24,000 nt of DNA, taken from the NCBI GenBank assembly GCA_002422685.1, contig DITC01000022.1, positions 565 through 24,564 on the forward strand, read 5' to 3'. The notes under the pieces are model-generated. The model saw nothing but the letters and a program-made list of their open reading frames with translations, did no database searches and had not been told where the DNA came from. Of the stretch, positions 2 to 23,156 are shown piece after piece. The position numbers and the translations under genes are program-made. Positions within the stretch are counted from its first letter, which is position 1. The number at the start of each line of letters is the position of its first letter. Source of the DNA: Thauera sp. UBA6194. Its GTDB lineage: Bacteria; Pseudomonadota; Gammaproteobacteria; Burkholderiales; Rhodocyclaceae.

Positions 2-49
2 TGGTGCCGGCAATAGGAATCGAACCCACGACCTTCTGATTACAAATCA
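2..49 (-). repeat. att repeat: truncated copy of the tRNA-Thr 3' part (anticodon stem to CCA)
   Basis: tggtgccggcaataggaatcgaacccacgaccttctgattacaaatca is identical over 48/48 bases to 23109..23156. The flanking bases differ (c1 vs a23108; c50 vs g23157). No tRNA 5' half follows it. Confidence 0.95.
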
Positions 50-223: not shown

Positions 224-1570
224 ATGCCCCGCCAGCGCCTCACCCTGCCCCGCATCGCTGCCTTCAAGCCTGAGAAGGAAAGTTTTCTCTGGGACGAGGA
301 CATGCCGCGCCTCGCGGTGCGGGCGCGTCCGTCGGGCTCGAAGACGTTCATCTTCAAGGGCACGCTCGACGGCAAGGAGATCAAGGTCACCATCGGCAGT
401 ACCGACACATGGACAATCGAGGCAGCGCGCGAGCAGGCGCGGCTCTACCAGCGGCAGATCGACGATGGCAAGGATCCGCGGGACGTGATCCGCGAGCAGC
501 GCGAAGCAGAGGAGGCCGCGAAGGAGGCCGCCCAGGCTGCAGCAGCGGCCGCACGCGCCGAGATCGAGCGCGCCCAGCGTTACACCCTTCGCGCGCTCTG
601 CGACGCCTACACGGCCGCACTCGAGCGGGCAGGCAAGGCGAAGAGCGCAGCATCGACACGTTCCGCGTTCAAGTGCCACGTCGACGCCGAGACCGCGAGC
701 ACGCCGGCGAAGGACGTGACCGCCCACCAGCTGGCCGCCCTGGTGCGCAAGGTGCGCGAGGCAGGCAAGGAGCGCGCCGCCGGGATCCTGCGTAGCTACT
801 TGTCGGCAGCGTTCAACGCGGCCAAGCGCGCCCCCTTCGATTCCGCCCTTCCTGCAGACCTGATCCCGTTCGCCATCGAGCACAACCCCGTCGACGCGAT
901 CCCGGCAATCGCGGTGCAGCGTGGTGACCGCACCCTGAGCCCCGCCGAGCTCCGCACCTACCTCGGCCACATCCTGCGCGTCGGACAGGCGGATTCAGCC
1001 GGCCCCGACCTGGCCGACGTGGCTCTGCTGCTGGCGCTGCTGGCAGGCGGGCAGCGCATCGCCCAGTTGCTGCGTGCCAAGGTCTCCGACTTCGACGAGG
1101 AGGCCGGCACGCTGCGGCTGTGGGATGGCAAGGGCAAGCGCCGCACCGCCCGCGAACACGTTCTCCCCCTCGCGCCTCGCGCGGTCGAGCTGGTCACGTC
1201 GCTGGCCCGCCGCACGCAAGCACTCGGCGGCGAGCAATGGCTGTTCGCATCGTGGAAGGACACGAGGATGGCGGACGAAACCCCGGGCAAGCGCGCCGCC
1301 GAGATCTGCGAGGCGATGGGCTGCGAGTCGTTCAACCTGCGCGACATCCGCCGGACCGTCGAGACCATGCTCGCCGGGCTGGGCATCAGCAAGGACACCC
1401 GCGCGCAGTTGCTCTCCCATGGCATCAGCGGCGTGCAAGCGGCCCACTACGACCGGCATGAGTACATCGAGGAGAAGCGCGCCGCGCTGGTGGCGTGGGA
1501 GAACCGATTGATGGGGGTGGTCCGCGGCGAGAAGACACCATCGAACGTGCGGCAGTTGCGCGCAGCCTAG
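224..1570 (+). CDS. int: Tyrosine recombinase / phage integrase (P4-like, N-terminal arm-binding domain)
   Basis: 448 aa. The N-terminus FLWDEDMPRLAVRARPSGSKTFIFKGTLDGKEIKVTIG resembles the P4-type (DUF4102-like) arm-binding domain. The C-terminus carries catalytic-box patterns GGQRIAQLLRAKVSDFD, NLRDIRRT and LSHG..AAHYDRHEY. An agagg RBS lies 8 nt upstream. The gene sits next to the att repeat. Confidence 0.92.
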   Translation: MPRQRLTLPRIAAFKPEKESFLWDEDMPRLAVRARPSGSKTFIFKGTLDGKEIKVTIGSTDTWTIEAAREQARLYQRQIDDGKDPRDVIREQREAEEAAKEAAQAAAAAARAEIERAQRYTLRALCDAYTAALERAGKAKSAASTRSAFKCHVDAETASTPAKDVTAHQLAALVRKVREAGKERAAGILRSYLSAAFNAAKRAPFDSALPADLIPFAIEHNPVDAIPAIAVQRGDRTLSPAELRTYLGHILRVGQADSAGPDLADVALLLALLAGGQRIAQLLRAKVSDFDEEAGTLRLWDGKGKRRTAREHVLPLAPRAVELVTSLARRTQALGGEQWLFASWKDTRMADETPGKRAAEICEAMGCESFNLRDIRRTVETMLAGLGISKDTRAQLLSHGISGVQAAHYDRHEYIEEKRAALVAWENRLMGVVRGEKTPSNVRQLRAA

Positions 1571-1589: not shown

Positions 1590-2210
1590 TCACGCCAAGC
1601 GCGTCACCCAATACGCCTCGGACACAATTGCGATCCCCGCGCCTTCCTCGCAATACTGCGCCGCCTTCGCGATCTTGGTGCCGAAGCTCGAATGACGCCA
1701 GAAATCTGAGCCCACGGAACCGATCACCAGATAGTTGAGCTTCTTGGTGACGCCCTTGGCCGGCTCGCCACCGCGCGCGAGCACAGCCTCGTGGCAGTCC
1801 GCCCGCGAACCGAACTCAAACACGCCGGTGAAGCAGAAGCTGCGACCCGGATAGAGAATCTCGGGCGCCGGCGCGGTCAGCGGCAAGGTGCTGGGAGCCG
1901 GCGCAGCCCCCACGCCAGCAGGGGCAGCAATCTGCATCAGCAGGCCGAGCAGTTCCCCGGCTTCGTCCGGGTCGAGCACCCCGTCGGCCAGCATGGCGCG
2001 CAGCCGGTCGTAAAGCACGCTGGCAGGCCAGGTATCGAGGCACTCCATGTTCCCGTGCAGCCACGCGAGGATGCCGTCGGCCTCATGCTGCTCGACCTTC
2101 CCGTCCAGTAGCGCCCCCTTTGCGAGGCCGATCAACTCGTCGATCTGCCGTTTCACGATGCGATCGGCGTGAATGCCCCGCAGCGCGTAGTCGTTGGGTT
2201 CCCGAGCCAT
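1590..2210 (-). CDS. BRCT domain-containing protein with an N-terminal helical domain of unknown function
   Basis: 206 aa. The C-terminus GRSFCFTGVFEFGSRADCHEAVLARGGEPAKGVTKKLNYLVIGSVGS...KIAKAAQY..GIAIVSEAYW follows the LigA-type BRCT pattern. A GGAGG RBS lies 5 nt upstream of the ATG. Convergent with int (19-bp gap). Confidence 0.75.
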   Translation of the reverse strand: MAREPNDYALRGIHADRIVKRQIDELIGLAKGALLDGKVEQHEADGILAWLHGNMECLDTWPASVLYDRLRAMLADGVLDPDEAGELLGLLMQIAAPAGVGAAPAPSTLPLTAPAPEILYPGRSFCFTGVFEFGSRADCHEAVLARGGEPAKGVTKKLNYLVIGSVGSDFWRHSSFGTKIAKAAQYCEEGAGIAIVSEAYWVTRLA

Positions 2211-2395: not shown

Positions 2396-2620
2396 ATGCA
2401 CGAACCCGAGTTCCAGGAAATATTCAACGGTGCCGACCTGCCCGCCGCGGTGATCAGCGCGAAGACGGGTGCCGCGCTGCTCGACGTGTCGGAGCGGCAG
2501 TGGCATCGACTGGTCGCGCGCGGTCTGCTGCCCCGCCCGATCAAGCTGGGGCGCAACACGCGCTGGCGCATGGCCGAGGTCGAGGCAGCACTCGAATCCA
2601 TTCCACCGAGCGAGGCCTGA
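2396..2620 (+). CDS. AlpA/excisionase-type HTH DNA-binding protein
   Basis: 74 aa. LLDVSERQWHRLVARGLLPRPIKLGRNTRWRMAEVEAAL matches the AlpA/Xis (HTH_17-like) pattern. First gene of the long plus-strand operon. Confidence 0.8.
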   Translation: MHEPEFQEIFNGADLPAAVISAKTGAALLDVSERQWHRLVARGLLPRPIKLGRNTRWRMAEVEAALESIPPSEA

Positions 2621-2702
2621 TGTGACCCCACAAAAAGGAAACGCTCACCGAGGCCTGGCCGCCAAGGTGAGCGCAAATGCAAAGCAATGTGACGTTGCGG
2701 AT

Positions 2703-3155
2703 GTGAGCCTACCTCACATCGAAGAAGCGATCTACCCCGATGTGTTCGCCGAGACCGCCCTCGCCTTCGCAATGCTGGCCATGGGCGAGCACGGTGTGAT
2801 CGACGACATGCACGCCGCCTCGGAGCTCCAGGCGATGGGCTGGCCTGTTCGCGTGTGGGACATCGAGTGCTCCGACGGCATCCGCCCGATTCCGCTCTGG
2901 GCCTTGCGTGAGTGGCTCGAGGATCGGCCGCGCGGCTGCTTCGATGAGTGGCTGCAGCGGTTCGACGACGCCTTCACCGAGATCCGCCTGCAGGCGCGAG
3001 GCAAAGACCGCGCCGCCCTCGAGTTGATCGACTGGTTCATTGAAGACCCCGCCAACCGGACCAGCGCAGCGCGCCGCGCCCTGCCGTCGTCCACCGAATA
3101 CGCTGCCATCGCGGCCCGCACTCTGAAGGAAAAGAACAATGGCTCTTGGCACTGA
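2703..3155 (+). CDS. Hypothetical protein (start uncertain)
   Basis: Frame of track ORF 2469..3155. Its first ~78 codons overlap the AlpA-like gene out of frame and look like GC shadow, so the start is moved to GTG 2703 (alternatives: GTG 2622, ATG 2772). The 3' end overlaps the giant ORF start by 17 nt. No motif recognised. Confidence 0.5.
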   Translation: MSLPHIEEAIYPDVFAETALAFAMLAMGEHGVIDDMHAASELQAMGWPVRVWDIECSDGIRPIPLWALREWLEDRPRGCFDEWLQRFDDAFTEIRLQARGKDRAALELIDWFIEDPANRTSAARRALPSSTEYAAIAARTLKEKNNGSWH

Positions 3156-6100
3156 CGACAAGATGCCCCGTGGCACGGTGGATGAGTTCAACAACCTTCG
3201 CCCGCTACCTGGCGCACCTGCCCCCGCGCAACCGCAACCGGCCGCCGGCCCGTGGCAGCGCTTCCAGCCCCAGGCCCAGGCCCAGCAGCCCGCTACCCAA
3301 GCGGCGCCACCGGTTACCGACTGGTCGAAGTTCGTGCCCGATCAGCCTGCCGCCCCGCAGACCGATTGGGGACAGTTCGTACCCGATCAGCCGCGCGAGA
3401 TGGGCATCATCAGCACGTTGGCGCAAGGCTTCCGCAACACCGGCCGCGCAGTCGGTGCAGCCGCCGACGTAGCACTCGACGATCGAGCAAGCGTGGTCGA
3501 GCGCGCGAACGCCCAGGCCGCCGCACCGAAGAACGAGAACCTGCGCGCCTTTGAAGGTGCGATCGAAAACCGCCGCGCCGCACTGGGCACCGACGACCCG
3601 GGTTTGCTGGATGCGCTGGGTGTGGTCGGCGGCGCGGTGCTCGCCCAGCCGAAGGGCGCCGGTTACGCGGTGCTCGAGCAGGCGCCGAACGCCGTGGCCG
3701 CCCTCGCCCCAGCTTGGGCAGGTGCGAAGCTGGGCGCCACCGCAGGCGCAGCTATTCCGCTGCCGGGCGCAGCACCCGCGCTCGGTGTGGTCGGCGGCCT
3801 GGCTGGCCTGTTCTTGGGTAACACCGCGCTCGAGGTCGGGCACAAGGCTATGGAAAAGGCGACCGACGGCCAGTTCACCGCCGCCGAGCGCGAGACCGCA
3901 TTCGTCGAAGGCGGAACGAAGGCTGCCACGATCACCGGCATCGATGCCGCGACGCTGGGCCTGTCGAAATGGATCATGGGTGCGACCTCTCGCGCCGTCG
4001 AGCGCGCCACCACGCGCGCCCTGACCGATGCCGGCGTCGATGTCGGCAACGAGGTGGCCGTGATGGCCGCCCGCCGATCGCCTGAGATGGTGAAGGCGGT
4101 GCGACAGGCACAAGAGGCAGCCATCGACACCACCGCCACGTTCGGCCGCAAGGCTGCCCGCGCTGGCGCAGCGCTCGGCCTCGAGACGATCGGTGAAGGC
4201 CTCGGCGAATACCTCGGCGAGCTCGCTGCAACGGGGAAGGCCGACGCGATCGACGCCGTGCTCGAGAGCGTGCTCAGCCTCGGCCAGTCGGGCGCAGAGG
4301 TCGCTTGGGGCGCATCGCGCAACGCCGCATCGATGGCCGCCGCCCGCCTCAACCCGGCCGCTGGTCCGAACAGCCGCGCCGCCATCGTCGCCTTGAACCA
4401 GCAGGCGCAGGGCAAGCTGCCACCGACTGAAGGCCCCCGCGCCGGCACGATGCAACAGGCTGCAGCAGCGGGGCAACTGGGCGGTGATTTGAATAACCAA
4501 GTGCCGACCGACTGGGCGCAGCAGATCGACGCGGCACTCGGCACCGCGCCCGCACAGCAAGAAGCGCAACCGATGGCGTCGCCCTGGCTCGATTACGAGC
4601 AGCAGGCACCGGCGACGGACTTGTCCGGATTCGTGCCCGATGCAGTCCCGGCCGGGTTCGTGCCGGACGCGAACCAGAACACCATCGAGACCTCCCCCGG
4701 CACCGCGCCGACCGCCACGACCAGCCCCGCGGCACCGAACGGCCAGCAGGATCAGCAGCAGGCCCCACGCCTCGTGCCGATGAAGGACGAGACCGCCGCA
4801 GCACGCCGCGCTGAAGTGGTCGCCAAGCGAACCGGCGTGCAGCACCTCGTGATTCCGCATCCGACCGTGGCCGGGCGCTTTGCTGTGGTGCCGGCCGACT
4901 CGCCGCTCGCCGCACCGACTGCCCAGACTGAGGGGCTCGACACTGCCGGCCTCTTCCAGACCCAGGTACCTATCCCGCTGAAGAACGCGCGCAACCTCGC
5001 CGGCATGATGTCGATGGCCGGCGGTGTCGAGCATGCCGTCGTGCCCGCCCCTACCGGTGATGGCTTCGGCGTGGCGCCCGTCGATCAACTTTCGCCCGCC
5101 CAGCTCCAGCAGTGGGCAGGCTTCCAACCCGGAACGCGGCGCGGTGCGGCCCGCCGCGTTCCAGGCCCGTCGGCCGCACCGACGGCAACGGCAACGCCCG
5201 CCCCCTCGGCGAGCACGACCAGCAGCACGGCCACCCCGATCGGGACGCCGGACGCTGGCCCCGAACTCGCCCAGGTGACCGGCGCGACGCCGCAAGCAGC
5301 ACCAGCAGCACCCGCAGTCCCGGAAGGCGCGCAGGGTCTCAACACCGAGGCCCAGCGCGCTGCACCGGCCCTGCCCCAGATCGACAGCAACACCTTCACC
5401 TCTGCCGTGGGCAACGCCCAGAGCACGATCCGCCGCGAACGCTGGACGGTGGACGGCGGCCGACGCTTCGAAGGTCGGATCCGCGCTGAACTCGAGCGTG
5501 CAGGCGTGTCGGCGAACGCGGCCCAGGCGGTGATCGACCTCGCGAAGCAGCAGAGTCCGGGCGACGCATTCGTGACCGGTGACGCGCTGGCGCAGGCGGC
5601 GCGCACGCTGGGCGTGATCAGCTCCGCATCGAGGACGACAACGCCGCAGCAGGACAAGCCCACCACCACCACCACCACCCGCGCCATCGTTCCCGGCCAG
5701 ACCGCCAAGGGCCGTGACGTGCTCCTCGCGCAGGTCGAGCAACTGAAGCAGCGCACCGCGCCCGCCGATCTGGTCAACGACTACAATGACCTGAAGGCCC
5801 GCATCGCCGACGCCCGCCGCCGCGCCGCCCTGAAGGCCACGAAGCGCACCGAGTCCGAGCGCCTCACCGAGTGGGCGGACAACCAAGATCGCGAACTCGA
5901 GCGCCTGCGCAACGAGATTGGGTTCGTAGAGCTGAAGGCCGGCACCGCGCGGTACAAGGTGCTCAACACGCCCGAGAACCTCGAGGTCTTCGCGCAGAAG
6001 CTGAAGAAGGCACCCGTCGGCCGATGGACGGTGACCGTCAAGCCTGAGGAGATTTACGACAATGTCGAAACCCGACCTGGCACAACCGAAGCCCAGCGTG

Positions 6101-9100
6101 AGACTGGCCGCAGTGCGGTGCGTGAGCTGGCCCGACGGGTCACGGCTCATCTACAGCGCCGAGGGAATCACCAAGATCGAGCCGCAATCGAGGTACTCGG
6201 CTCCCGCCTCTACGACGGATTCGCCGCCAACGGTGGCGTCGACCTCGTCGGCCAGCGAGTAACCAGCGCCGAAGACCTCGCCGTCTTGGCGCAGGTTTTC
6301 AGAGATCCCCGCTTCGAAACTTTTCGGGTCTTCTATACCGACCAGCAGGGCGTTGTCGTCGGTGAGGGCGCGTATTCGAGCCGCCTGCCCGCTGCTGTCA
6401 ATCTGCCGAACGACTTCGACGCCCACATCCGCCGCGACATGGGGCGCTTCGGCGCGACCGGCTTCTGGGTGCTTCACAACCACCCGTCCGGCCGCGCCAC
6501 CCCGTCACCGGCCGACGTCAATCTAACGAAGTGGATCGCCAGCAGCGTAAGCGGCTTCCGCGGTCACGTCGTGATCGATCACAACGAGTTCGCGACCATC
6601 GGCGGACAGGGCGCGGTGCAGGTCGTTCAGGCGCCGCAGCTCAACGGCACCGACTTCGGCAGCAAACCCGAGCTCGATCATCACATGCTCGGCAGCACGA
6701 TCAACGGTGAGCGGGACGTCGTGCAGGCCGCCAAAGCGCTGCAGGTGAAGAACGGGCACGCGGCCCTGATCTTCCTACGCCGCGACCAGAAAGTGCAGCT
6801 CGTGATGGATGTGCCGATGGCGTTGCTCCAGGACACCAGCCGCGCCGCCCTTGGCAAGCTGCGTGCAGTCGTGCGGGCGTTTGCGCGCGAGTCCGGGGCC
6901 GGTGGCTGGCGCTTCCTTGTACTGCCCGACGGCGTCAGCCCGGAGCCGATGAAGCGGCTGGTGCTGGACAACATCTTCACCGACATCGTGTCCGCGGATG
7001 GCACGACCGCCGGCAACTTCGGCGCGGTCACCACTGGCGACTTCCTCGATTACAGCCCGCCGATTCGTCGCGTGAAGGAGGCCGACGAGCCCAGTCGCGC
7101 GCAGACCGACACAGCTGCCTTCCGCCGCTGGTTCGGCAACAGCCAAGCCATCGACGACAACGGCCAGCCGCTGGTGATGTACCACGGCACGAACAAAGAC
7201 ATCACCGCGTTCAAAGCCGGCCGCGGTGGCGGGGCAATCTGGTTCGCCACCGACCCCACGCTCGCGAACATGTTCGTCGCCGGCGGCCGCCAGCGCATGG
7301 CCGAGGGCAACCGCAAAGGCTCGGCGGTCTATCCGGTGTTCCTGTCGGTGCAGAACCCGCTCGACTTGGGCGACGCATCGCCCCAGGACAACAGCCCCTA
7401 CTCGTACGTGCTGAAGGCCGCCGGCCTGCCCGCGAATTACGACGCGGTCGCAGAAATCGCCCGCCGCAACCTCGAAAGTGGGTATGCCGGCGTGAGCCCG
7501 TCGGCACAGGATCCGATCGCAACCCTGACCGAAACCTACATGGCCCGGTACAACCGGCTATCCGACATCCTCGATAACCCGGGGCTGATCGAGGTACTGC
7601 AGGAAGCCGGCTTCGATGGGATCAAGATGCAGGAACAGGGCGTGACCACCTTCGCGGTGTTCAGGCCCGAGCAGATCAAGAGCGCCACCGGCAACGCTGG
7701 CACCTTCGATCCGGCCGATCCGTCGATCGTGCGCGAGGACACCGCCGACCCGTACAACACCATCGAGACCCGCCCGAACACGACCGAGGCCCAGCTCGAC
7801 ACCGGCCGCGCCGCCCTCGCCGACGTGCAGCGGCGCATTCTCAGTCTTCGCGGCCAGCGGATCGGCGCGGCGGTGCTGGGCTCGCGCCTGGCCGCTGACC
7901 TCGCCACCACCGGCGGCGCGCAACTGATCGGCCAAGAGGTGCGCGACGCGAGCGACCTGGCGGTGTTGGGGCAGATCTTCAGAGATCCCCGCTTCGAGAC
8001 CTGGCGAGCCATTTTCGTGAAGGACGGGAAGATTGTTGGTGAGCACGCTTACAGCTCGCGCCTGCCCTCCTCGGTGCTCATGCCGCGCGGCATCGATCAG
8101 TGGCTCAAGACCCAATCGGAGAAATACGGCGCGGACGCCGTATTCACACTACATAATCACCCGAACGGCACCGCAAGGCCATCGGACGGCGACATGCACT
8201 TCGCGGCCCGACTGCGTCGTGAAGTTCCGAACTGGAAGGGCGAGATCATCATCGACAGCTCGGAATATGCCGTACTCACCGGCCTCGGTGTGCCGTCTGA
8301 GAGCTCCGAGAGCATGAGCGTGCGCGACCTGGCCGAATACGGCGCGACGGTAACCTTTGCCCCGCGCCTGGCTTCGGTCGACTTCAACTCTTCCCCCGAG
8401 CTCGAACACCGCCTCCTCGGCCTGCCGATCGGCGACCCGGCGAACATCGCGAAACTGGGCAAGGCCCTGCAGATTCCGGGCGGGCATGCCGCGATGATCG
8501 TGACCAGCGAGGGCAAGGTGCAGGCCCTGCTCGACGTTCCTGTCGCGCCCTTGCTCGACACCAAGTCGAAGCTGGGCCGCGCGAAGATCATGGCCATGGT
8601 CCGCCGAATCTCCCGTGCAACCGGCGGCGAGTCGCGGTTCCTCGTGGTGCCCAAGGGCGCGAAACTCGACCGCTGGTTTGTGCGCCAAGGCATCTTCCAG
8701 GACGTGGTGAGCGAGACCGGCACATCGATGTTGGCCGCCGTGCGCAAGTGGAACGGCGACCCGAATTGGTTCCCGATGGACCAGATCGGGCGCAACGCCG
8801 GCCGCAGCGCCCGCCTGCTGTACGAGCCCGCCGCTGGCTACGACGCCGCGGAGCCCGGCACGCGCCGCAGCCGCGCCGCCGAGCCGCAGCAGACCGAGGC
8901 GATCGAGGACTTCACGCCCGAGCGCGCCACCGTCGGCGAGTGGATCGCGCACCAGCTCAAGCAGAACAGGGGCTGGGCGATGGGTGCGCTGACGCGTGAC
9001 CAGCTCGCCGACATTTATGGCGCCAGCATGCCGGCAGTTGAGCAGTTCGACCGCACCGTGCAAGCGATGGACCTCGTTCGGAATCGCATGATGGAACAGG

Positions 9101-11526
9101 CCGACGCACTGGTCGAGCGCTGGCGGAAATTGCCCAGCAAGGAGGCCGACCGCCTCGCCGACGTGATGCACGCGGCCACCCTGGCGCAGTTCGACCCGGC
9201 CGAGATGAACGCGACCACGCCCGAGGAACAGCAGATCGCGGCCGACTTCGATGCGCTGTCGATGCCCGCTCAAGCGGTGTATCGCGACGTTCGCGACCAG
9301 TACCGTGACACCCTGATCGCGGTCCGCGATAGCCTCGCCAGCCGCGCCGAACGCACAGGCAGCACCGGGCGGGCCATCGCCGACGAGATCCGGCTCAAGT
9401 TCGACCGCTACCTTAGCGAAGGGCCTTACTTCAGCCTGGCCCGCTTCGGCGACTTCATCCTGATCGCCGACCGTGACGGGGAGCGTGTAGTCGAGGCGTT
9501 CGAGAGCTCACTGCAGCGTGAGAAGCGCGCCCGCGGACTGCGCGCCCAGGGCTTCCAGGTGAAGCTGACCGCGAAGCAGCAGTACAGCGCGACCAAGGAC
9601 GGCGCGGCCGGCTCCTTCATCGGCGACGTACTCGAGAAAGTCGATGCGCTCGACATGGACGGCGAGCAAAAATCGGCACTCATGGACCAGTTGAATCAGC
9701 TGGCCATTTCCGCCTTGCCGGACGCGAGCTATCGCAAGCACTTCGCGCACCGCAAGGGCACGCCGGGCTTTTCCAACGATGCGATGCGCGCCTTCGCCTC
9801 GTCGCAAATGCACGCAGCCCACCACCTGGCGCGGATCAAGCACGCCGACGAGCTCGCGCTGCTGATTGACGAGATGCGCGAGGACATCCAGGCCCAGCGC
9901 GGCGACGTCGACACCACCGAGCAGCAGCAGGTCGTCAACGAACTCACGCGCCGACTGGACCTCATGATGAATCCGACGACGCACCCGGTCACCGCAGCGC
10001 TCGGGCAGGTCGGCTTCGTGATGTCGCTCGGCGGCAGCATTGCATCGGGCATCACGAACCTGAGCCAAACCCCGCTTGTGACCTACCCCTGGCTGGGCTC
10101 GAAGTTCGGATTCGACAAGGCTGCCGGCGCCCTGCTGAAGGCGAGCAAGGATTACTTCGGCGGCCGATGGGAGAAGTGGTCGGGCTTTGTACTCGCCGAT
10201 AACCCGAACCTCATCGACGACGAGCGCGCCGCCCTGCGCCACCTCGAGGAAACCGGCTTGATCAACCTGACCCAGGCAAGCGACCTAGCCGGCACGGCGA
10301 ACACCGACTCGACGGTCAGCAAGCGGGCATTCGCGATCAACCGCGCAATGAAAATCGTCGGCTGGACCTTCCACACGCCGGAAGTCTTCAACCGGCAAGT
10401 GTCGGCCCTGGCCGCGTATCGCCTCGCGCGCGACGCCGGACAGACCCACGACACCGCCATCGAATCGGCGCGGCAAGCGCTTATCCGCACGCACTTCGAT
10501 TATTCCGCCAGCAACCGCGCCCGGTTCATGGCAGGAAATGTCACGCGGGTCATCACGATGTTCAAACAATATTCGCAGAACGTGACCTACCTGATGTGGC
10601 GCAACGCCTATCAGGCCCTCAAGGGCGAATCGGCCGATGTGCGCCGCGAGGCCCGCCGCATGCTGCTGGGTGTCGCCACGATGCACTTCGCGGCGGCCGG
10701 CACGATGGGCTTGCCGCTCGGGATCTTCGGCGTTACGCCCCTGCTGGCGCTACTCAGCATGGGCATGGGCGACGGGGACGATCCGTGGGATTGGGAAACC
10801 GAGTACCGCAACATGCTCGCCGACACCTTCGGCAAGGAGGGCGGGGAAGCCATCGCAAAGGGGCCGATCCGCATGCTGCTGAACGTGGATCTGGCGTCGC
10901 GCGTCGGACTCGGTGACCTCTGGATTCGCCCGCCGCAGAAGGAAGCCGAGGGGCGTGACCTCGTTGAGGCATGGCTGATCAGCCTGCTCGGCCCCGTCGC
11001 CGGTTACGCCGGGCAGATGGGCACCGCTGCGAAGGCCTTCGAAGAGGGCAAGTTCGCCCGGGGCGTTGAGGCGATGCTGCCCAAGTTCCTGGCGTCGCCG
11101 CTCAAGGCGATCCGGTATGAAGCGGAGGGCGTGCGCAGCTGGAAGGGTGCCGACCTTGGCATCACGCTCACCGAGGCGGACATCGCGGGCACGGCGCTGG
11201 GCTTCAATCCGGCACGCGTCGCCGAGATGTACGAGGGTCGCAGCGCGGTGAAGGGGCGCGAAGCACGGCTCCAGGCGCGGCGCGAGGAACTCACGAACAT
11301 GTGGTGGGAGTCGCAGCAGGCCGGCGACCGCACAGGTGTCGCCGAGGCGTTCGACCAGATCCGCAAGTTCAACCAGCGCAACCCGCCCTTCGCTATCACG
11401 ATGAAAACCTTGCGCCAGTCGGCGATGGCTCGGCGACGTGCCCAGCTCCAGACCGCACAGGGCTACTTCCTGAACCGCCGCCGCGACGAGCTCCGCGAGT
11501 TCAGCCGCTTCGCCAACATCGACTGA
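3139..11526 (+). CDS. Giant multidomain 'polyvalent' protein: 2x RadC-like JAB/MPN modules + ART-like domain + PLxRFG C-terminal region
   Basis: Uninterrupted 2,795-codon ORF with an aaggaaaag RBS upstream of ATG 3139. In-frame motifs are VLHNHPSGRATPSPADVNLT (HNH at 6475..6483), TLHNHPNGTARPSDGDMHFA (8152..8160), FRRWFGNSQAIDDNGQPLVMYHGT (YHG at 7180..7188) and YFSLARFGDF (SLARFG at 9433..9450). All recognisable motifs lie in this frame, and the antisense ORFs are low-complexity R/G/A-rich. Confidence 0.9.
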   Translation: MALGTDDKMPRGTVDEFNNLRPLPGAPAPAQPQPAAGPWQRFQPQAQAQQPATQAAPPVTDWSKFVPDQPAAPQTDWGQFVPDQPREMGIISTLAQGFRNTGRAVGAAADVALDDRASVVERANAQAAAPKNENLRAFEGAIENRRAALGTDDPGLLDALGVVGGAVLAQPKGAGYAVLEQAPNAVAALAPAWAGAKLGATAGAAIPLPGAAPALGVVGGLAGLFLGNTALEVGHKAMEKATDGQFTAAERETAFVEGGTKAATITGIDAATLGLSKWIMGATSRAVERATTRALTDAGVDVGNEVAVMAARRSPEMVKAVRQAQEAAIDTTATFGRKAARAGAALGLETIGEGLGEYLGELAATGKADAIDAVLESVLSLGQSGAEVAWGASRNAASMAAARLNPAAGPNSRAAIVALNQQAQGKLPPTEGPRAGTMQQAAAAGQLGGDLNNQVPTDWAQQIDAALGTAPAQQEAQPMASPWLDYEQQAPATDLSGFVPDAVPAGFVPDANQNTIETSPGTAPTATTSPAAPNGQQDQQQAPRLVPMKDETAAARRAEVVAKRTGVQHLVIPHPTVAGRFAVVPADSPLAAPTAQTEGLDTAGLFQTQVPIPLKNARNLAGMMSMAGGVEHAVVPAPTGDGFGVAPVDQLSPAQLQQWAGFQPGTRRGAARRVPGPSAAPTATATPAPSASTTSSTATPIGTPDAGPELAQVTGATPQAAPAAPAVPEGAQGLNTEAQRAAPALPQIDSNTFTSAVGNAQSTIRRERWTVDGGRRFEGRIRAELERAGVSANAAQAVIDLAKQQSPGDAFVTGDALAQAARTLGVISSASRTTTPQQDKPTTTTTTRAIVPGQTAKGRDVLLAQVEQLKQRTAPADLVNDYNDLKARIADARRRAALKATKRTESERLTEWADNQDRELERLRNEIGFVELKAGTARYKVLNTPENLEVFAQKLKKAPVGRWTVTVKPEEIYDNVETRPGTTEAQRETGRSAVRELARRVTAHLQRRGNHQDRAAIEVLGSRLYDGFAANGGVDLVGQRVTSAEDLAVLAQVFRDPRFETFRVFYTDQQGVVVGEGAYSSRLPAAVNLPNDFDAHIRRDMGRFGATGFWVLHNHPSGRATPSPADVNLTKWIASSVSGFRGHVVIDHNEFATIGGQGAVQVVQAPQLNGTDFGSKPELDHHMLGSTINGERDVVQAAKALQVKNGHAALIFLRRDQKVQLVMDVPMALLQDTSRAALGKLRAVVRAFARESGAGGWRFLVLPDGVSPEPMKRLVLDNIFTDIVSADGTTAGNFGAVTTGDFLDYSPPIRRVKEADEPSRAQTDTAAFRRWFGNSQAIDDNGQPLVMYHGTNKDITAFKAGRGGGAIWFATDPTLANMFVAGGRQRMAEGNRKGSAVYPVFLSVQNPLDLGDASPQDNSPYSYVLKAAGLPANYDAVAEIARRNLESGYAGVSPSAQDPIATLTETYMARYNRLSDILDNPGLIEVLQEAGFDGIKMQEQGVTTFAVFRPEQIKSATGNAGTFDPADPSIVREDTADPYNTIETRPNTTEAQLDTGRAALADVQRRILSLRGQRIGAAVLGSRLAADLATTGGAQLIGQEVRDASDLAVLGQIFRDPRFETWRAIFVKDGKIVGEHAYSSRLPSSVLMPRGIDQWLKTQSEKYGADAVFTLHNHPNGTARPSDGDMHFAARLRREVPNWKGEIIIDSSEYAVLTGLGVPSESSESMSVRDLAEYGATVTFAPRLASVDFNSSPELEHRLLGLPIGDPANIAKLGKALQIPGGHAAMIVTSEGKVQALLDVPVAPLLDTKSKLGRAKIMAMVRRISRATGGESRFLVVPKGAKLDRWFVRQGIFQDVVSETGTSMLAAVRKWNGDPNWFPMDQIGRNAGRSARLLYEPAAGYDAAEPGTRRSRAAEPQQTEAIEDFTPERATVGEWIAHQLKQNRGWAMGALTRDQLADIYGASMPAVEQFDRTVQAMDLVRNRMMEQADALVERWRKLPSKEADRLADVMHAATLAQFDPAEMNATTPEEQQIAADFDALSMPAQAVYRDVRDQYRDTLIAVRDSLASRAERTGSTGRAIADEIRLKFDRYLSEGPYFSLARFGDFILIADRDGERVVEAFESSLQREKRARGLRAQGFQVKLTAKQQYSATKDGAAGSFIGDVLEKVDALDMDGEQKSALMDQLNQLAISALPDASYRKHFAHRKGTPGFSNDAMRAFASSQMHAAHHLARIKHADELALLIDEMREDIQAQRGDVDTTEQQQVVNELTRRLDLMMNPTTHPVTAALGQVGFVMSLGGSIASGITNLSQTPLVTYPWLGSKFGFDKAAGALLKASKDYFGGRWEKWSGFVLADNPNLIDDERAALRHLEETGLINLTQASDLAGTANTDSTVSKRAFAINRAMKIVGWTFHTPEVFNRQVSALAAYRLARDAGQTHDTAIESARQALIRTHFDYSASNRARFMAGNVTRVITMFKQYSQNVTYLMWRNAYQALKGESADVRREARRMLLGVATMHFAAAGTMGLPLGIFGVTPLLALLSMGMGDGDDPWDWETEYRNMLADTFGKEGGEAIAKGPIRMLLNVDLASRVGLGDLWIRPPQKEAEGRDLVEAWLISLLGPVAGYAGQMGTAAKAFEEGKFARGVEAMLPKFLASPLKAIRYEAEGVRSWKGADLGITLTEADIAGTALGFNPARVAEMYEGRSAVKGREARLQARREELTNMWWESQQAGDRTGVAEAFDQIRKFNQRNPPFAITMKTLRQSAMARRRAQLQTAQGYFLNRRRDELREFSRFANID
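6270..6605 (+). other. Domain: RadC-like JAB/MPN metallopeptidase, copy 1 (intact HxH..S..D motif)
   Basis: EDLAVLAQVFRDPRFETFRVFY...GFWVLHNHPSGRATPSPADVNLT...HVVIDHNEF contains the RadC-type JAMM signature HNHPSG-x3-PS-x2-D. Confidence 0.8.
7105..7700 (+). other. Domain: ART-like (polyvalent-protein type ADP-ribosyltransferase-like) region
   Basis: TDTAAFRRWFGNSQAIDDNGQPLVMYHGT...GAIWFATDPTLANMF...AVYPVFLSVQNPLDL...FDGIKMQEQGVTTFAVFRPEQIK. This pattern is recalled from ART-PolyVal-type domains of phage and plasmid polyvalent proteins. The assignment is by eye only. Confidence 0.5.
7951..8280 (+). other. Domain: RadC-like JAB/MPN metallopeptidase, copy 2 (intact motif)
   Basis: SDLAVLGQIFRDPRFETWRAIFV...AVFTLHNHPNGTARPSDGDMHFA...EIIIDSSEY. 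It shares the 20-nt identity ttcagagatccccgcttcga (7978..7997) with copy 1 (6298..6317). Confidence 0.8.
8900..11526 (+). other. Domain region: PLxRFG-type C-terminal region with hydrophobic segments
   Basis: GPYFSLARFGDFILIAD fits the PLxRFG motif (S in place of P). Downstream hydrophobic stretches are VGFVMSLGGSIASGITNL, LLGVATMHFAAAGTMGLPLGIFGVTPLLALLSMGMG and LISLLGPVAGYAGQMG. Confidence 0.55.
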
Positions 11527-12124: not shown

Positions 12125-12146
12125 CGCTGCCGTGATCGAGGCGCCG

Positions 12147-12683
12147 ATGCTGCTCTTCACCACCGTCGACACGTCGGCACCCGCACCCGCGCGCCACTCC
12201 GTTCCGCAAATCCCGAGGAGCGCCGAGACCATCGACCGCGCGCTCCTCGATCAGCCGGCGAGCTGGGCGTGCTTCCCGTCGGCGTGGCACCTGGCCGCCT
12301 GGCGTGCAGAGGCGGGTGAGCACTTCGCCCCGTGCGTTGATTGCCTGCCGGACTTTCAGGCGCGCATGCAGCGCCTGCACCGCTGCCGGCACCCCGACGT
12401 GATCTTCATCGAGGAAGACGGCGAGGTCGTCGGCCGGCTGCCCACGCCCGCGGGCTTGTCGCGCTACGGCTCCAGATCGGATGTTGATCCGGCCGCTTCC
12501 GCTTTTTCTGTGGTCCTGGCGTGCCGCTTCTTGGGCGTCGATGGCGTTGTCGCCCTGCTCGGGATCTCGGCGCCCTCGCTGCCGCACTATCGTAATGGCA
12601 ACAGAACGCTGCCGCCCGCGAAGTTTCTCGCGCTGCAGGCGGCCGTGCGCGCGGCGGCGCGGTTCATCACCTCGAGGAGCTGA
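12147..12683 (+). CDS. Hypothetical protein with a Cys/His cluster and a possible C-terminal HTH
   Basis: Frame of track ORF 12132..12683. ATG 12147 is preferred because a gagg sits 5 nt upstream; GTG 12132 is the alternative. Contains CVDCLPDFQARMQRLHRCRH, then LACRFLGVDGVVALLGISAPSLPHYRNGNRTLP (XRE-like HTH look). Confidence 0.6.
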   Translation: MLLFTTVDTSAPAPARHSVPQIPRSAETIDRALLDQPASWACFPSAWHLAAWRAEAGEHFAPCVDCLPDFQARMQRLHRCRHPDVIFIEEDGEVVGRLPTPAGLSRYGSRSDVDPAASAFSVVLACRFLGVDGVVALLGISAPSLPHYRNGNRTLPPAKFLALQAAVRAAARFITSRS

Positions 12684-12687
12684 CCTC

Positions 12688-13503
12688 ATGCACACACCCT
12701 GCTTTGCTGCCCAGGTAGAGCGCGCGCTCGGCATCGCCGCCGATGAACTCGCCGCCGCTGGCAACCCGGGTGCTGCGTTTGCCCAAGCGATCGTGCGCGC
12801 GATTCCCCAGGCGCAACACTTCACGCTGCCAGCGGGCGGCCGACTCTTCGATGATGGCCTGCGCGGGCTCGACACCGACCTGCACGCGATCCGCCTGCCC
12901 TACCCGGTCATCACGCTTTCCTTCGCTGACGGCGCGCGGCGGACACTCGTTGTCGCCCAGGAATTGCACGAGGCAGGACAGAACACCATCGTGGTGCGAG
13001 TCGCGGTGGACACGGGCGGCGGTCAGGGGTGGGGCTTTTTCCCGTGCACCGCCCAGCCGGAGCAGCGCCACGACGACGGCTCGGTCGCGTGGGTGTGCTT
13101 CGACAGCGTCGGCGGCCGACTGGACCGCACGCCGATGCACGAGGCGGTCATGGCTGCCGGGCGCAGCGTCCTCGAGCTGGTCGAAGCGCTCTCATGCAAC
13201 AACGTTGCGGCAGAGGTCGTCGAGCGCGTGGATCCGGCGGTGAATGCGCGCCGCCGCCGACAGGGGAAACTTGCGCTCTACGAAACGCGCGTTCTGGTCG
13301 TGAGGGTGGGCGACGTGGCGCACGCGATCGGTGCGCCAGTCGGAGATCGGAACGGACCGCGCGAACACCTGCGCCGCGGTCATGTGCGTCGCCTGCCGGA
13401 CGGTCGGAAGACTTGGGTGCAGGCCTGCGTTGTCGGCTCTCGGGCGCTGGGCGTGGTGCGGAAAAGCGCCTACGTGATCGAGGTTGAGCGCGCGCTCGCA
13501 TAG
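12688..13503 (+). CDS. Hypothetical protein
   Basis: Internal ATG 12688 of track ORF 12481..13503, with a gaggag RBS at 12674..12679, 4 nt after the upstream stop. The region upstream of 12688 overlaps the previous gene. 271 aa with a basic C-terminal motif REHLRRGHVRRLPDGRKTWVQACVVG. No family recognised. Confidence 0.65.
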   Translation: MHTPCFAAQVERALGIAADELAAAGNPGAAFAQAIVRAIPQAQHFTLPAGGRLFDDGLRGLDTDLHAIRLPYPVITLSFADGARRTLVVAQELHEAGQNTIVVRVAVDTGGGQGWGFFPCTAQPEQRHDDGSVAWVCFDSVGGRLDRTPMHEAVMAAGRSVLELVEALSCNNVAAEVVERVDPAVNARRRRQGKLALYETRVLVVRVGDVAHAIGAPVGDRNGPREHLRRGHVRRLPDGRKTWVQACVVGSRALGVVRKSAYVIEVERALA

Positions 13504-14180: not shown

Positions 14181-15182
14181 ATGCCTAAAGCAGTGTCTTT
14201 GTTCTCGGGGTGCGGCGGATCGGACGCGGGCGTGATCGCGGCCGGGTTCGATGTCGTCATGGCGAATGACATAATCGCCTACGCGCGCGACGCCTATCTG
14301 GCCAACCTGCCCAAGACCGACTACGTGCTCGGCGATGTGGCCAAGATCGAGGACAGCGCATTCCCGAGCGCCGAGCTTCTAGTGGGATGCTATCCGTGCC
14401 AGGGCTTTAGCCAGGGTGGCGCCCGCGAGGCCGACCGCCGCATCAATACACTGTATCTGGAATTCGCCCGCGCTTTGCGGGCCATCCAGCCCAAAGCCTT
14501 TATTGCCGAGAACGTCTCGGGCTTGCGCCGCAGCACGTACAAGCATCTGCTCGACGACCAGATCGTGCAGTTCAGTTCGGCCGGCGAGCACGGCTATGAC
14601 GTGGTGTGGCAAGAGCTCAAAGCCCACGAATACGGCGTGCCACAAGAGCGCAAACGGCTGGTCATCGTCGGCATTCGGCGGGATCTGGGCGTGCGCTATG
14701 GCTTCCCGGCGCCCACCCATGGGCCGAGCGCGGACCAGCCCTACCTGACGATCGGGAAGGCGCTCGAAGGCTTGCCCGAATGGCCGGAAGGGGAATACTG
14801 CGACGACCCCTTCCACTGGTATTACCTTTCACGCAACCGCCGGCGCGGCGCGGACGAGATCAGCAAGACGATCGTCAGCCACATGCGCCACATGCCCTTG
14901 CATCCGGTGAGCCCCTCGCTCAAGCGCATCCACACCGACAAGTGGGAGTTCGAGGAGGACAAGCCCGCCCGCCGCTTTTCCTACCGCGAGGCTGCGCGGC
15001 TGCAGGGCTTCACCGGGAAATACCTCAAGCACGGCGGCGATTTTGTCTTTCCAGAGGCGTGCACCCATGCATCCGGGCAGGAAGGCAACCTGTTGCGCTA
15101 TCGGTACAAGGTCATCGGCAATGCGGTGCCGCCCCCGCTTTTCGAGGCGGTGGCAAAGGCGTTGCCGGATGTCTGGGACTGA
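14181..15182 (+). CDS. dcm: DNA (cytosine-5)-methyltransferase
   Basis: 333 aa with m5C-MTase motifs in order: LFSGCGG (I), GCYPCQGFSQGG (IV, catalytic PC), FIAENV (VI), QERKRLVIVG (VIII), GNAVPPPL (X). An aaaaggag RBS lies upstream. Confidence 0.93.
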   Translation: MPKAVSLFSGCGGSDAGVIAAGFDVVMANDIIAYARDAYLANLPKTDYVLGDVAKIEDSAFPSAELLVGCYPCQGFSQGGAREADRRINTLYLEFARALRAIQPKAFIAENVSGLRRSTYKHLLDDQIVQFSSAGEHGYDVVWQELKAHEYGVPQERKRLVIVGIRRDLGVRYGFPAPTHGPSADQPYLTIGKALEGLPEWPEGEYCDDPFHWYYLSRNRRRGADEISKTIVSHMRHMPLHPVSPSLKRIHTDKWEFEEDKPARRFSYREAARLQGFTGKYLKHGGDFVFPEACTHASGQEGNLLRYRYKVIGNAVPPPLFEAVAKALPDVWD

Positions 15183-15210
15183 CTGAGCGCGCGCGGAGCG
15201 GCGTGGGGTC

Positions 15211-15633
15211 ATGGCGGACCGCTTTTCCTCCGCAGCCCGCGACCGTGTGATGTCCCGCATCAAACAGCGTGACACTGCGCCGGAAATGGCGCTGTGGCGG
15301 GCGCTTTGGGCTGCGGGGCTTCGCTATCGGCTGAAGCTAAAGCAGAAGCTACCAGGCAAGCCCGATTTGATATTTGCGGCGGTCAAGGTCGCGATCTTTG
15401 TCCATGGCTGCTTCTGGCACGGGTGCCCAGAGCACGGCCGCAAGCCTAAGAGCCATGAAGCGTATTGGACGCCGAAACTCTCGAGGAACCTGCGCAGGGA
15501 TGCCGAGGTGAATGCCGCGCTCGAGGCGATGGGCTGGCAGGTTGTCCGATTCTGGGAACACCAGATCACAGCGGACCTGGCCGGCTGCATTGCACGAGTG
15601 GCCGTGTTGGTCAGGCCATGCACAACTGCATGA
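15211..15633 (+). CDS. vsr: Very short patch repair endonuclease
   Basis: 140 aa. TAPEMALWRALWAAGLRYRL...GKPDLIFAAVKVAIFVHGCFWHGCPEHG...YWTPKLSRNLRRD...GWQVVRFWEH is the Vsr signature. The gene lies directly downstream of the m5C MTase. Confidence 0.92.
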   Translation: MADRFSSAARDRVMSRIKQRDTAPEMALWRALWAAGLRYRLKLKQKLPGKPDLIFAAVKVAIFVHGCFWHGCPEHGRKPKSHEAYWTPKLSRNLRRDAEVNAALEAMGWQVVRFWEHQITADLAGCIARVAVLVRPCTTA

Positions 15634-16552
15634 CGTGCTGCATGCGTGCGTTTTCAGCGAGCAGCACGGTCGCGGCCTTTTCCCGTTTGGCAAGCAGCGT
15701 CAGGCGGACCCGGTCGAAAACGATGCCTCCATGCCGCGAAATGAAAGGGAGCTTTTCATCCAGCGCATGGCGCGGGGTGAAGATCGCGCGGACAGGATCA
15801 ACGTTGGCGATTTCGCTCACCCATTCATTCAGAATCTTAATGTTGAGGTCCTGCAGCTTCGCGTCCGTGTGCCAGTTCTTACCGCAGGCGCACTGCCCCA
15901 ACAGGTAAAGCTGCCCGGCGCGGCCATCGACGCTCTTCTTCCAAGCGACGATGTCGAGGCCCTGTTCCTTTGCCCGTTGAGGGGATGGGTCTTCCGGGTT
16001 GCCTTCCTTTGGGCCCCATTTCCATTCGCCGCACTGATCGCCAGTGGCCTTGCGCAATTCTTCGATCGCGCCTTTAAGCGTGGTTGCACTGCCCCGTGGG
16101 CGGGGCCAGCCAATGCGGTAGGAAGCCGCGTCGTCGCCCAGGTAGGCTTCGGCGATCAGGCACGACAGCGCCTCGAACGTGCGGGGGAGAAGCCGCTTTC
16201 GACCGGTCGAGTAGTCCTCCGCCAGACTCACTAGCAGAAGAAGTTCGTACAGTTGAGGATCTGCGGGGACGTGAATCAAACGGCTTCCCACGTGGCGAAA
16301 GGGGTAAGCGTCGCCCAAGAGCCGGGCACGGCGTTCGATCTCCGTCGCAGCTTCGGCCTCTGCCTCCTCAAGGGCCTTGTCGCGCTCCAATGCATTGTTG
16401 CCGCGTGGATAGTCATCATCGGCGCCAGAGAGCTTCTCATCGATGATGCCGGCGCTTATAGGGGCCTCACCCATCCGCAGCGCAGCAAGCTCGGCCTGAT
16501 CTGCATTTTCGGTCGGGTCGGTGCGCCGTGGCGCGCGTTTGCGCCTAGCCAT
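15611..16552 (-). CDS. Putative PD-(D/E)xK (Mrr-like) nuclease with an Arg-rich N-terminus
   Basis: Track ORF 15611..16573. ATG 16552 is preferred because a GAGGAGG sits 9 nt upstream; ATG 16573 is the alternative. The pattern FEALSCLIAEAYLG ... QGLDIVAWKK ... GQLYLLGQCACGKNW resembles restriction-endonuclease (Mrr_cat-like) cores. Its start overlaps the upstream ParB-like gene by 8 nt, and its 3' end overlaps the vsr 3' end by 23 nt. Confidence 0.5.
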   Translation of the reverse strand: MARRKRAPRRTDPTENADQAELAALRMGEAPISAGIIDEKLSGADDDYPRGNNALERDKALEEAEAEAATEIERRARLLGDAYPFRHVGSRLIHVPADPQLYELLLLVSLAEDYSTGRKRLLPRTFEALSCLIAEAYLGDDAASYRIGWPRPRGSATTLKGAIEELRKATGDQCGEWKWGPKEGNPEDPSPQRAKEQGLDIVAWKKSVDGRAGQLYLLGQCACGKNWHTDAKLQDLNIKILNEWVSEIANVDPVRAIFTPRHALDEKLPFISRHGGIVFDRVRLTLLAKREKAATVLLAENARMQHVMQLCMA

Positions 16553-17735: not shown

Positions 17736-17853
17736 TTGCGTTCCTGGTCTTGACGTGCCATTGGGCAAATCGCCCACTCTGAATTATGGCAATGGTCTAT
17801 GTTTTTTTGACTTTCCGGGAATAATATCTGCCGGCGCCTAGTGTCAAAGTCAA

Positions 17854-18246: not shown

Positions 18247-18248
18247 AA

Positions 18249-18297: not shown

Positions 18298-18322
18298 ATA
18301 TCTGGGTCTAGCATCGATCCCC

Positions 18323-23108: not shown

Positions 23109-23156
23109 TGGTGCCGGCAATAGGAATCGAACCCACGACCTTCTGATTACAAATCA
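23109..23156 (-). repeat. att repeat within the intact tRNA-Thr
   Basis: 48/48 identical to 2..49. Confidence 0.95.

Follow-up and report, generated by a model that had tools for sequence, protein, structure and literature searches.

A 2,795-residue PLxRFG polyvalent protein encoded by a satellite-like integrative island of Thauera

The stretch of DNA analyzed here, 24,000 nucleotides of Thauera sp. UBA6194 (GenBank assembly GCA_002422685.1, contig DITC01000022.1, positions 565 to 24,564) and hereafter termed the window, contains an integrative island in which a single gene encodes a giant polyvalent protein of 2,795 residues. The protein carries two RadC modules, an ADP-ribosyltransferase (ART) domain, and an LPD39 domain followed by a C-terminal PLxRFG domain, or tail, that is shared with giant proteins of 57-65-kb phages. 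We put at roughly 50% the probability that the island is a helper-dependent phage satellite, with an integrase, AlpA-type regulators, and a primase like those of phage-inducible chromosomal islands (PICIs), that loads its own ejected effector protein into the particles of its helper. Even if the satellite idea is wrong, the giant protein is a clean case of a phage-type polyvalent protein that is kept under selection outside a phage.

The giant gene occupies positions 3139-11526 of the plus strand (window numbering). A preliminary description of this DNA, made from the sequence alone, had reported a single uninterrupted open reading frame (ORF) of 2,795 codons at this location, and the ORF is indeed coding throughout: it starts with ATG, is preceded by an AAGGA ribosome-binding site, contains no internal stop, and maintains a GC content at third codon positions of 0.75-0.93 across all 150-codon blocks. 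A stop-free run of 2,795 codons has a probability of ~1e-31 at the local GC content. Comparison with the relative in locus L001 gives dN/dS values of 0.09-0.27 across the segments of the protein, all below 1, and purifying selection acts on every segment. In the same comparison dS differs between segments, which points to recombination at the level of modules. Since a pair of 48-bp tRNA-Thr repeats bounds the island at 23.2 kb, the gene accounts for 36% of the island (8,388 of 23,155 bp), in agreement with the share of about one third claimed earlier. A scan for promoters and terminators returned counts at chance level and is uninformative.

A near-identical protein is already held at NCBI under the automatically assigned name "MAG: PLxRFG domain-containing protein [Thauera sp.]", with three differences in the C-terminal 870 residues; the protein class is therefore known. 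The giant gene has no megablast match among phages, and the protein scanned singly against GTDB genomes and IMG/VR gave either no match or matches to the ART domain only. The gene and the parts of its product are as follows (aa, amino acids).

3139..11526, plus strand: giant polyvalent protein gene, 2,795 aa, comprising the parts below
3400..4338, plus strand: conserved N-terminal domain, aa ~88-400, Gly/Ala-rich; no Pfam model; dN/dS 0.11
4339..6018, plus strand: low-complexity P/Q/A/T-rich linker, aa ~401-960, assigned from composition; dN/dS ~0.25-0.27, still constrained
6055..7083, plus strand: RadC/JAB module A, aa 973-1315; motif HNHPSG..PSPAD
7153..7707, plus strand: ART-PolyVal ADP-ribosyltransferase domain, aa 1339-1523; PF18760, E=5.9e-24, full-length match
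7765..8793, plus strand: RadC/JAB module B, aa 1543-1885; motif HNHPNG..PSDGD; Prok-JAB match
8950..9357, plus strand: LPD39 domain, aa 1938-2073; PF18858, E=4.5e-25
9421..11481, plus strand: PLxRFG "tail-700" domain, aa 2095-2781; NF032893; dN/dS 0.09

The two RadC domains, ART-PolyVal, and LPD39 all exceed their Pfam gathering scores. RadC (PF04002) reaches 50.4 bits against a cutoff of 22.1 in two stretches of the protein, and ART-PolyVal reaches 85.9 bits against a cutoff of 31.2 and spans model positions 1-140 of 140. The assignments that the preliminary description had drawn from short motifs (HNHP at aa 1113 and 1672, YHGT at aa 1348, and SLARFG at aa 2099) thus pass curated thresholds in profile searches. 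The RadC domains carry the H-x-H...S...D metal-site motifs of RadC-like JAB proteins, HNHPSGRATPSPAD and HNHPNGTARPSDGD. Modules A and B constitute a duplicated unit of ~335 aa (41% identical, E=1e-77), in each of which Pfam detects one RadC domain. An earlier claim of a pair of JAB domains at each place is borne out as one RadC domain per module; the ~160 residues that follow each RadC core may or may not be a second, degenerate JAB (hhalign probability 24%). In the ART domain the strand-1 histidine (HGT) and the aspartate of the G-x-DG motif are conserved; the strand-2 tyrosine was not confidently placed. The RadC domains are predicted to process nucleic acids and the ART domain to modify host proteins. 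By the definition of Iyer et al. (2017), polyvalent proteins combine two or more domains of disparate biochemical activities in one polypeptide, are encoded by an invasive element, and enter the recipient cell with the DNA. The domains and the location of the giant protein agree with its earlier assignment to this class.

The N-terminal portion of the protein had been described as disordered, which is only partly correct: residues 1-87 are rich in P/Q/A and residues ~401-960 are of low complexity, but residues ~88-400 make up a conserved domain. In an exhaustive search, this N-terminal domain recurs in 241 representative clusters, 185 of them at E<1e-10, nearly always near the N-terminus and mostly in proteins of 2,000-5,700 residues. 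It is common to a Neisseria prophage protein (E=2e-25) and to proteins P0017, P0019, and P0020. Only 11 of the 89 long representatives with this domain also have the PLxRFG tail, and the giant proteins of POI1126, F116, and T. humireducens are without it; on these distributions the N-terminal domain is an independent module that combines with alternative tails. Among phage giant proteins with various tails, it looks like a "head" module that has yet to be catalogued. The domain may be capsid-targeting or membrane-active.

The tail matches NF032893 with 674.9 bits (curated cutoff 100; E=1.3e-202) over model positions 1-678 of 681, which places the protein in the PLxRFG family. In all 83 homologues examined, the tail forms the extreme C-terminus, and LPD39 always lies N-terminal to it. 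Its invariant motifs are YFxLxRFG and FHxxExxNR, and a conserved hydrophobic stretch at aa 2520-2544 (nucleotides 10696-10770) is followed by an acidic DDDPWD motif. This stretch is the only strongly hydrophobic segment found in the tail, for which hydrophobic helices had been proposed earlier. The tail also holds an H-F-D-Y-S-x-S-N-R-x-R motif. The polar invariants hint, from conservation, at catalysis or metal binding in a module that is usually assumed to be structural. An AlphaFold2 model of the tail is almost wholly α-helical (predicted local distance difference test 76, predicted template-modeling score 0.71), and no significant match was obtained among solved structures (best Foldseek E=0.65). 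The "DarB-like" label that PHROG attaches to the giant protein concerns the shared C-terminal module only.

Outside the island family, the tail is found in phages, prophages, and plasmids. It is present in 73 records of the annotated phage collection, with sizes of 57-65 kb for nearly every one of those listed. Tail-bearing phages include F116, H66, LKA5, phiC725A, POI1126, PBC5, Atu_ph08, and PEp14, as well as Pavtok, Parlo, SopranoGao/SJM3, douglas 12A4, and Skulduggery. The phage tails are 24-35% identical to the island tail over ~98% of its length, and a hidden Markov model of the tail matches F116 p60 with E=8e-71 and POI1126 gp30 with E=3e-287. In these phages the giant gene is the last of the virion module, before the lysis genes. 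Copies in Neisseria meningitidis, T. humireducens, and Stenotrophomonas lie in prophages beside capsid or virion-like genes. Twelve plasmid matches were obtained, all typed as non-mobilizable, nine of which are 55-87 kb; the remaining three comprise a Roseicitreum replicon of 425 kb and a pair of Neisseria gonorrhoeae records, each ~2.17 Mb. IMG/VR contributes 248 relatives of the tail, none more than 45% identical, and an island-type integrase or primase was nearby in none of the 80 inspected. The homologues are not housekeeping or surface proteins; had they been, this would have told against the preliminary description.

H66 gp60, one of the PLxRFG proteins matched by the tail query, is annotated in RefSeq as a virion component verified by mass spectrometry. 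F116 p60, H66 gp60, douglas 12A4 gp62, and PBC5 p23 were placed by Hardies et al. in an extended T7 gp16 family, IVP-D (short for internal virion protein D), and these giants were likened to N4 gp50, with an ejection module bearing an enzyme destined for the cytoplasm (PMC4819975). The IVP-D giants of that study are the same proteins that the island tail query matches. The earlier statement that the domain order was not recognized as characterized therefore needs to be narrowed, given that the class is known, that a near-identical protein is in NCBI, and that the closest phage proteins are classed as T7 gp16-like (PMC4819975).

Phages and some relatives of the island have, directly 5' of the giant gene, a weakly conserved, fast-evolving, Q/A-rich gene, here called the upstream partner (L004:2836-4863, L007:7720-9987, L005:8808-10004, L022:4010-5014, and L021:1316-2545). 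Its members include phrog_11341, with F116p58 and a 755-aa protein of T. humireducens, and more distantly a 398-aa Neisseria protein and the ORFs of L022 and L021. The upstream partner, which may be another core or ejection protein, is missing from the island in the window.

The island measures 23,155 bp and is delimited by two exact copies of a 48-bp direct repeat, one at 2-49 and the other at 23109-23156. Besides the giant gene it contains the features listed here (nt, nucleotides; AEP, archaeo-eukaryotic primase).

2..49: left direct repeat (att), 48 bp identical to 23109-23156; the 3' 48 nt of tRNA-Thr(TGT)
224..1570, plus strand: tyrosine integrase, 448 aa; Pfam Arm-DNA-bind_3 and Phage_integrase; 97% identical to the L002 integrase
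1590..2210, minus strand: conserved 206-aa protein, divergent from the giant-gene operon; phrog_3989, E=5e-51
2396..2620, plus strand: HTH_17 gene (MerR/excisionase/AlpA-type), first gene of the operon; PF12728, 29.6 bits; phrog_66 "excisionase and transcriptional regulator"
2622..3155, plus strand: conserved 177-aa ORF, overlapping the giant ORF start by 17 nt; orthologues in L001, L002, L022, L023, and L025
11552..12124, plus strand: conserved 190-aa ORF, coiled-coil-like; orthologues in relatives
12132..12683, plus strand: conserved 183-aa ORF; orthologues in relatives
12685..13503, plus strand: conserved ORF of 272 aa; invariant motif HLRRGH[VI]R; phage-borne family
14181-15182, plus strand: Dcm methylase, in the variable cargo region 14181..17777
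15211-15633, plus strand: Vsr, in the variable cargo region
15611-16573 and 16545-17777, minus strand: two-gene unit in the variable cargo region; 320 aa, phrog_14650, and 410 aa, phrog_3694
17854-18246, minus strand, and 18323-18583, plus strand: two HTH_3 genes
18580-19086, plus strand: small P-loop ORF, within the block 17854..19086
19445..21970, minus strand: Prim-Pol/PriCT_2/VapE-like primase-helicase, 841 aa; AEP Prim-Pol type
21937..22356, minus strand: conserved ORF of ~139 aa, between the AlpA-like gene and the primase
22353..22616, minus strand: second AlpA/HTH_17-like gene, 87 aa; weak PF12728 match; 98% identical to the L002 copy
23109..23184, minus strand: intact tRNA-Thr(TGT), whose 3' 48 nt (23109-23156) are the right direct repeat

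The giant gene is the third of a six-gene operon, comprising HTH_17, the 177-aa ORF, the giant gene, and the 190-, 183-, and 272-aa ORFs, with gaps or overlaps of 1 to 25 nt. The giant ORF had been placed behind an AlpA-like gene; the HTH_17 gene is indeed upstream, and the 177-aa ORF lies between the two. Neither the 177-aa nor the 190-aa ORF has a family match. A leftward operon at the other end is composed of the second AlpA-like gene, whose L001 counterpart has a weak Phage_AlpA match, the 139-aa ORF, and the primase-helicase. The N-terminal half of the primase-helicase is 79% identical to that of L001, and its C-terminal half is mosaic among relatives (VapE vs DUF5906). The C-terminal part of the divergent 206-aa protein resembles the BRCT region of NAD-dependent ligases, and the protein has a weak PADLOC match to PDC-S48. 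Its gene is present in L001, L002, and L023, and the L025 sequence breaks off at it. Occupying the position expected of a master repressor, the 206-aa protein is a candidate regulator.

No capsid, portal, large terminase, tail, or lysis gene was detected in the island in Pfam, PHROGs, and NCBIfam scans, and no relaxase, coupling protein, or type IV secretion system (T4SS) gene was found among the scanned island ORFs, oriT not having been searched for. This agrees with the earlier view that virion and conjugation genes are not visible. An Rfam scan of the window yielded tRNA only.

The variable region holds Dcm, Vsr, and a two-gene unit, the 410-aa product of which matches PD-Lambda-5_A defence models over its N-terminal ~130-190 residues only; together they may represent an undescribed type of restriction or defence cassette. 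In relatives, HicAB, RelE/HTH, or KilA-N/BstA occupies the variable region, so that 14181-17777 acts like a hotspot for cargo.

The family of the 272-aa ORF has 247 IMG/VR relatives and is common in contigs of uncultured tailed phages, where its gene (loci L026-L132) usually lies a few kilobases upstream of an ORF of ~730-830 aa. The family is linked to PLxRFG genes at only 2 of 108 loci. A role as a hidden packaging gene is unsupported: fold matches are to uncharacterized phage proteins only, and the top matches in the PDB, to AcrVA2, are not significant (E~0.15, TM-score ~0.2). Outside the island, a ProQ/FinO-family gene (23462-23923, minus strand) adjoins it beside tRNA-Thr, as in L002, L022, and L023, and is a useful marker of the empty site.

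The close family of the giant protein comprises 15 further clusters at 60-93% identity, and at least 16 clustered relatives have an uninterrupted ORF. In the six contexts read (L001, L002, L021, L022, L023, and L025), the order of the core genes is common to all; L025 is a cultured island carrier, Thauera phenylacetica B4P. The exact 48-bp repeat also bounds the islands in L002 (19.8 kb), L022 (19.5 kb), and L023 (19.0 kb). In L001, the same core is accompanied by a different integrase of 420 aa (L001:25357-26619), at the opposite end and at another chromosomal site, which indicates exchange of the integration module. Identical repeats around several islands and the altered integrase and site of L001 are strong evidence that the island family is active and mobile and not a single relic. 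A tandem insertion considered for L022 was rejected, the shared sequence being only a hairpin of ~40 bp after the tRNA. Family members differ in the modules of the giant protein: the N-terminal region and tail are retained, whereas there may be one or two RadC modules, and several members lack the ART domain.

L021 carries a small terminase (TerS) of the Terminase_2 family (PF03592, E=4.6e-21), whose nearest phage matches are TerS proteins of 57-66-kb Ralstonia podophages. In L002, a group II intron reverse transcriptase/maturase (RVT_1 and GIIM; L002:4684-6036) lies just beyond the left end of the island. A 207-aa cargo ORF of L001 (L001:20441-21064) contains 45 residues that are 71% identical (E=2e-12) to F116 L004:18590-18724; this stretch lies downstream of the head-fibre gene of F116 and connects the island family with F116-type phages, if only by a short sequence.

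As a satellite, the island would act through the following sequence of events. A podophage of the PLxRFG type would grow in an island-bearing cell, in which the six-gene operon led by HTH_17 would be expressed and the island would excise and replicate by means of its own primase-helicase. Island DNA would then be packaged into helper heads, and the giant protein would be built into the internal core of the capsid via its conserved end modules. At the next infection, the giant protein would be ejected with the DNA, its hydrophobic PLxRFG tail aiding passage across the envelope, such that RadC and ART would reach the cytoplasm, act on host nucleic acids and proteins, blunt defences, and aid establishment of the island. 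Loading of the giant protein into helper particles is plausible, and for its proposed delivery with the DNA the verified presence in virions of H66 gp60, whose tail is homologous, is the only, indirect support.

Several features speak for a satellite: a giant protein with retained catalytic-type motifs, purifying selection, and a tail that is otherwise a phage module; precise att repeats; a recurrent core without virion, lysis, or conjugation genes, found also with a different integrase and site; the TerS of L021; the upstream partner kept in some relatives; and variable defence or toxin-antitoxin cargo. Defence or toxin-antitoxin cargo is a known trait of satellites. At 19-23 kb, the islands are about one third the size of the 57-65-kb tail-bearing phages, a ratio that parallels P4 with P2 and the Staphylococcus aureus pathogenicity islands (SaPIs) with 80-alpha, and which is suggestive only.

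Other results weigh against the satellite reading. No helper phage has been identified, and there is no evidence of excision, packaging, or association of the giant protein with virions. No phage-borne tail found exceeds ~40-45% identity to the tail of the family, and accordingly no matching helper lineage is in hand. The island of the window has three of the five PICI core components, with neither a TerS nor a capsid-remodelling gene, a combination that de Sousa et al. call "Type C" and regard as ambiguous (PMC10085698). The preliminary label of satellite-like island therefore holds as far as a bounded integrative island with an integrase, AlpA-type regulators, and a primase-helicase is concerned, and falls short in the incomplete PICI set. 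The kinship of the tail with T7 gp16 also failed to reappear: a search of the tail profile against the PDB with hmmsearch gave no gp16 or gp50 match, alignment with T7 gp16 in hhalign gave a probability of 0.2%, and Foldseek gave no significant match. With these limited tests not reproducing it, the link is treated as literature-based, resting on the HMM-HMM analysis of F116/H66 homologues by Hardies et al. In addition, the small conserved ORFs of the island have no similarity to the flanks of phage giant genes. Metagenome contigs contained no excised, circular, or concatemer junction, a result that is uninformative because integrated copies were absent there too.

A more far-reaching form of the satellite reading is put forward tentatively and is somewhat doubtful. 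It is that the islands are a family of satellites that encode their own internal-core or ejection protein, which would replace the giant protein of the helper with a shorter one bearing a different payload (RadC with or without ART), and that the N- and C-terminal "bookends" would be the signals for capsid loading and ejection. Each satellite particle would then bring anti-defence enzymes of the satellite's own choice. If this form is correct, hijacking of the ejectosome would be a new class of helper exploitation, and the island protein would offer a natural, modular scaffold with which arbitrary protein domains could be delivered by podophage particles.

It is unlikely that the giant protein acts instead in the resident cell, as an interference or defence factor that takes the place of an infecting PLxRFG phage's own giant protein in capsids. 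The phage progeny would then be crippled, or RadC and ART would attack the invader directly, and either outcome is compatible with satellite behaviour. Iyer et al. propose that polyvalent proteins captured by hosts or islands may target incoming elements (PMC5512222), the island bears other defence-type cargo, the payload is without the methylase and helicase domains typical of phage versions, and satellites commonly interfere with their helpers (PMC10085698). The giant gene, however, belongs to the conserved core operon headed by an excisionase/AlpA-type gene and not to the variable cargo, its payload modules differ among relatives in the manner of anti-defence payloads, and no PADLOC model matches the protein.

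Considerably less probable is that the island is an integrative mobilizable element (IME) dependent on a conjugative helper, with the giant protein translocated together with the DNA through a T4SS. Mobilizable elements, too, can take the form of islands with an integrase and a primase, but no conjugation genes were found, as described above, the tail was seen only in phage, prophage, or non-mobilizable-plasmid contexts, RadC also co-occurs in current data with LPD38, a phage-only domain, and L021 bears a phage small terminase. Least probable of all is a decaying prophage remnant with a giant gene left over from a podophage virion module, since, even though the nearest functional context of the giant gene elsewhere is such a module in prophages and no other virion genes are left in the island, all segments of the gene are under purifying selection, 16 or more clustered relatives have an intact ORF, four islands of 19-23 kb are delimited by identical and precise att repeats, conservation and translational coupling characterize the six-gene operon, and the same core is found with a different integrase at another site in L001.

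Satellites known so far take over capsid size, packaging specificity, or tails. If the island does load its own giant protein into the head of a helper, satellites would also customise what enters the cell alongside their DNA, and this could account for the survival of helper-less DNA when it meets restriction in a new cell. The end modules, being conserved, would then be loading and ejection determinants of a large and poorly understood class of phage giant proteins. The payload swaps among close relatives are a natural experiment in effector swapping, and the cultured carrier T. phenylacetica B4P makes the satellite idea directly testable. The literature searched, with incomplete coverage that does not amount to proof of novelty, contains no description of a satellite-encoded polyvalent or ejection protein.

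Among known systems, PICI and P4-like satellites (PMC10085698) and the elements AH14a and AH14b (PMC4936722) resemble the island in having an integrase, an AlpA-type regulator, a primase-replicase, integration at a tRNA gene, and variable defence cargo. Of the PICI components, the window provides the integrase (ORF 224-1570), the alpA/merR/stl-type regulation (HTH_17 genes 2396-2620 and 22353-22616), and the primase-replicase (19445-21970). Pfam and PHROG scans found no small terminase in the window, and L021, which has one, reaches four of five; for capsid morphogenesis or remodelling there is no Pfam, PHROG, or NCBIfam match in the island. The P4-like hallmarks (psu-delta-sid, epsilon, the P4 alpha-type primase, and CI RNA) have no Pfam, PHROG, or Rfam match, and the relaxase, coupling protein, and T4SS of an integrative and conjugative element (ICE) or IME are likewise not seen among the scanned ORFs, a scan that did not extend to oriT. 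An ejected or internal virion protein is not listed as a core component for any of the four SatelliteFinder families (PMC10085698). AH14b was rejected as a close analogue, as it has no giant protein and no ejected or internal virion function among its assigned genes (PMC4936722).

P1 DarB and the "DarB-like" proteins of Bcep22 and JC1 are giant virion-borne anti-restriction proteins and illustrate the delivery of a protein with DNA. As the paradigm proposed earlier, P1 DarB fits poorly: the N6-adenine methyltransferase and DExH helicase of DarB-type proteins have no Pfam or NCBIfam match in the giant protein, and the Bcep22 "DarB-like" giant has no PLxRFG tail. Virion proteomics of Bcep22 and JC1 was rejected as support and is not transferable, because Bcep22 gp75 lacks the tail; it lacks the N-terminal domain as well.

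Like the polyvalent proteins of Iyer et al., the island protein is a giant product of a mobile element in which several enzymatic domains of unrelated kinds are joined (PMC5512222). ART-PolyVal, RadC, and LPD39 were defined or used in that study, where the contexts described are conjugative elements, late regions of phages, and capture by hosts, and where RadC is given as confined to conjugative elements (PMC5512222). The satellite-like island is a different context, and this restriction of RadC does not hold here, where RadC is part of a phage-type scaffold. With T7 gp16 and N4 gp50, the island tail shares a predicted all-α fold with a hydrophobic segment; sequence, profile, and fold similarity to T7 gp16 or any solved structure were not detectable, and the island protein is not assigned to IVP-D by homology.

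A further comparison is with the giants of PLxRFG podophages (H66 gp60, F116 p59 and p60, POI1126 gp30, PBC5 p23, and the "DarB-like" proteins of PEp14 and Pavtok). LPD39 and the PLxRFG C-terminus are common to these and to the island protein, and in both a variable enzymatic payload lies upstream of the tail. The differences are in length, payload, and genetic context. The phage giants span 3,800-4,900 aa with methylase and helicase payloads, whereas the island protein spans 2,795 aa with a RadC-ART-RadC payload, and the phage giants end a virion module before the lysis genes, whereas the gene of the island protein lies in an integrase/primase island that has no capsid genes. Although proteins of this class are known, the island context is unusual, as is the proposed strategy of a mobile element that would bring its own injected protein.

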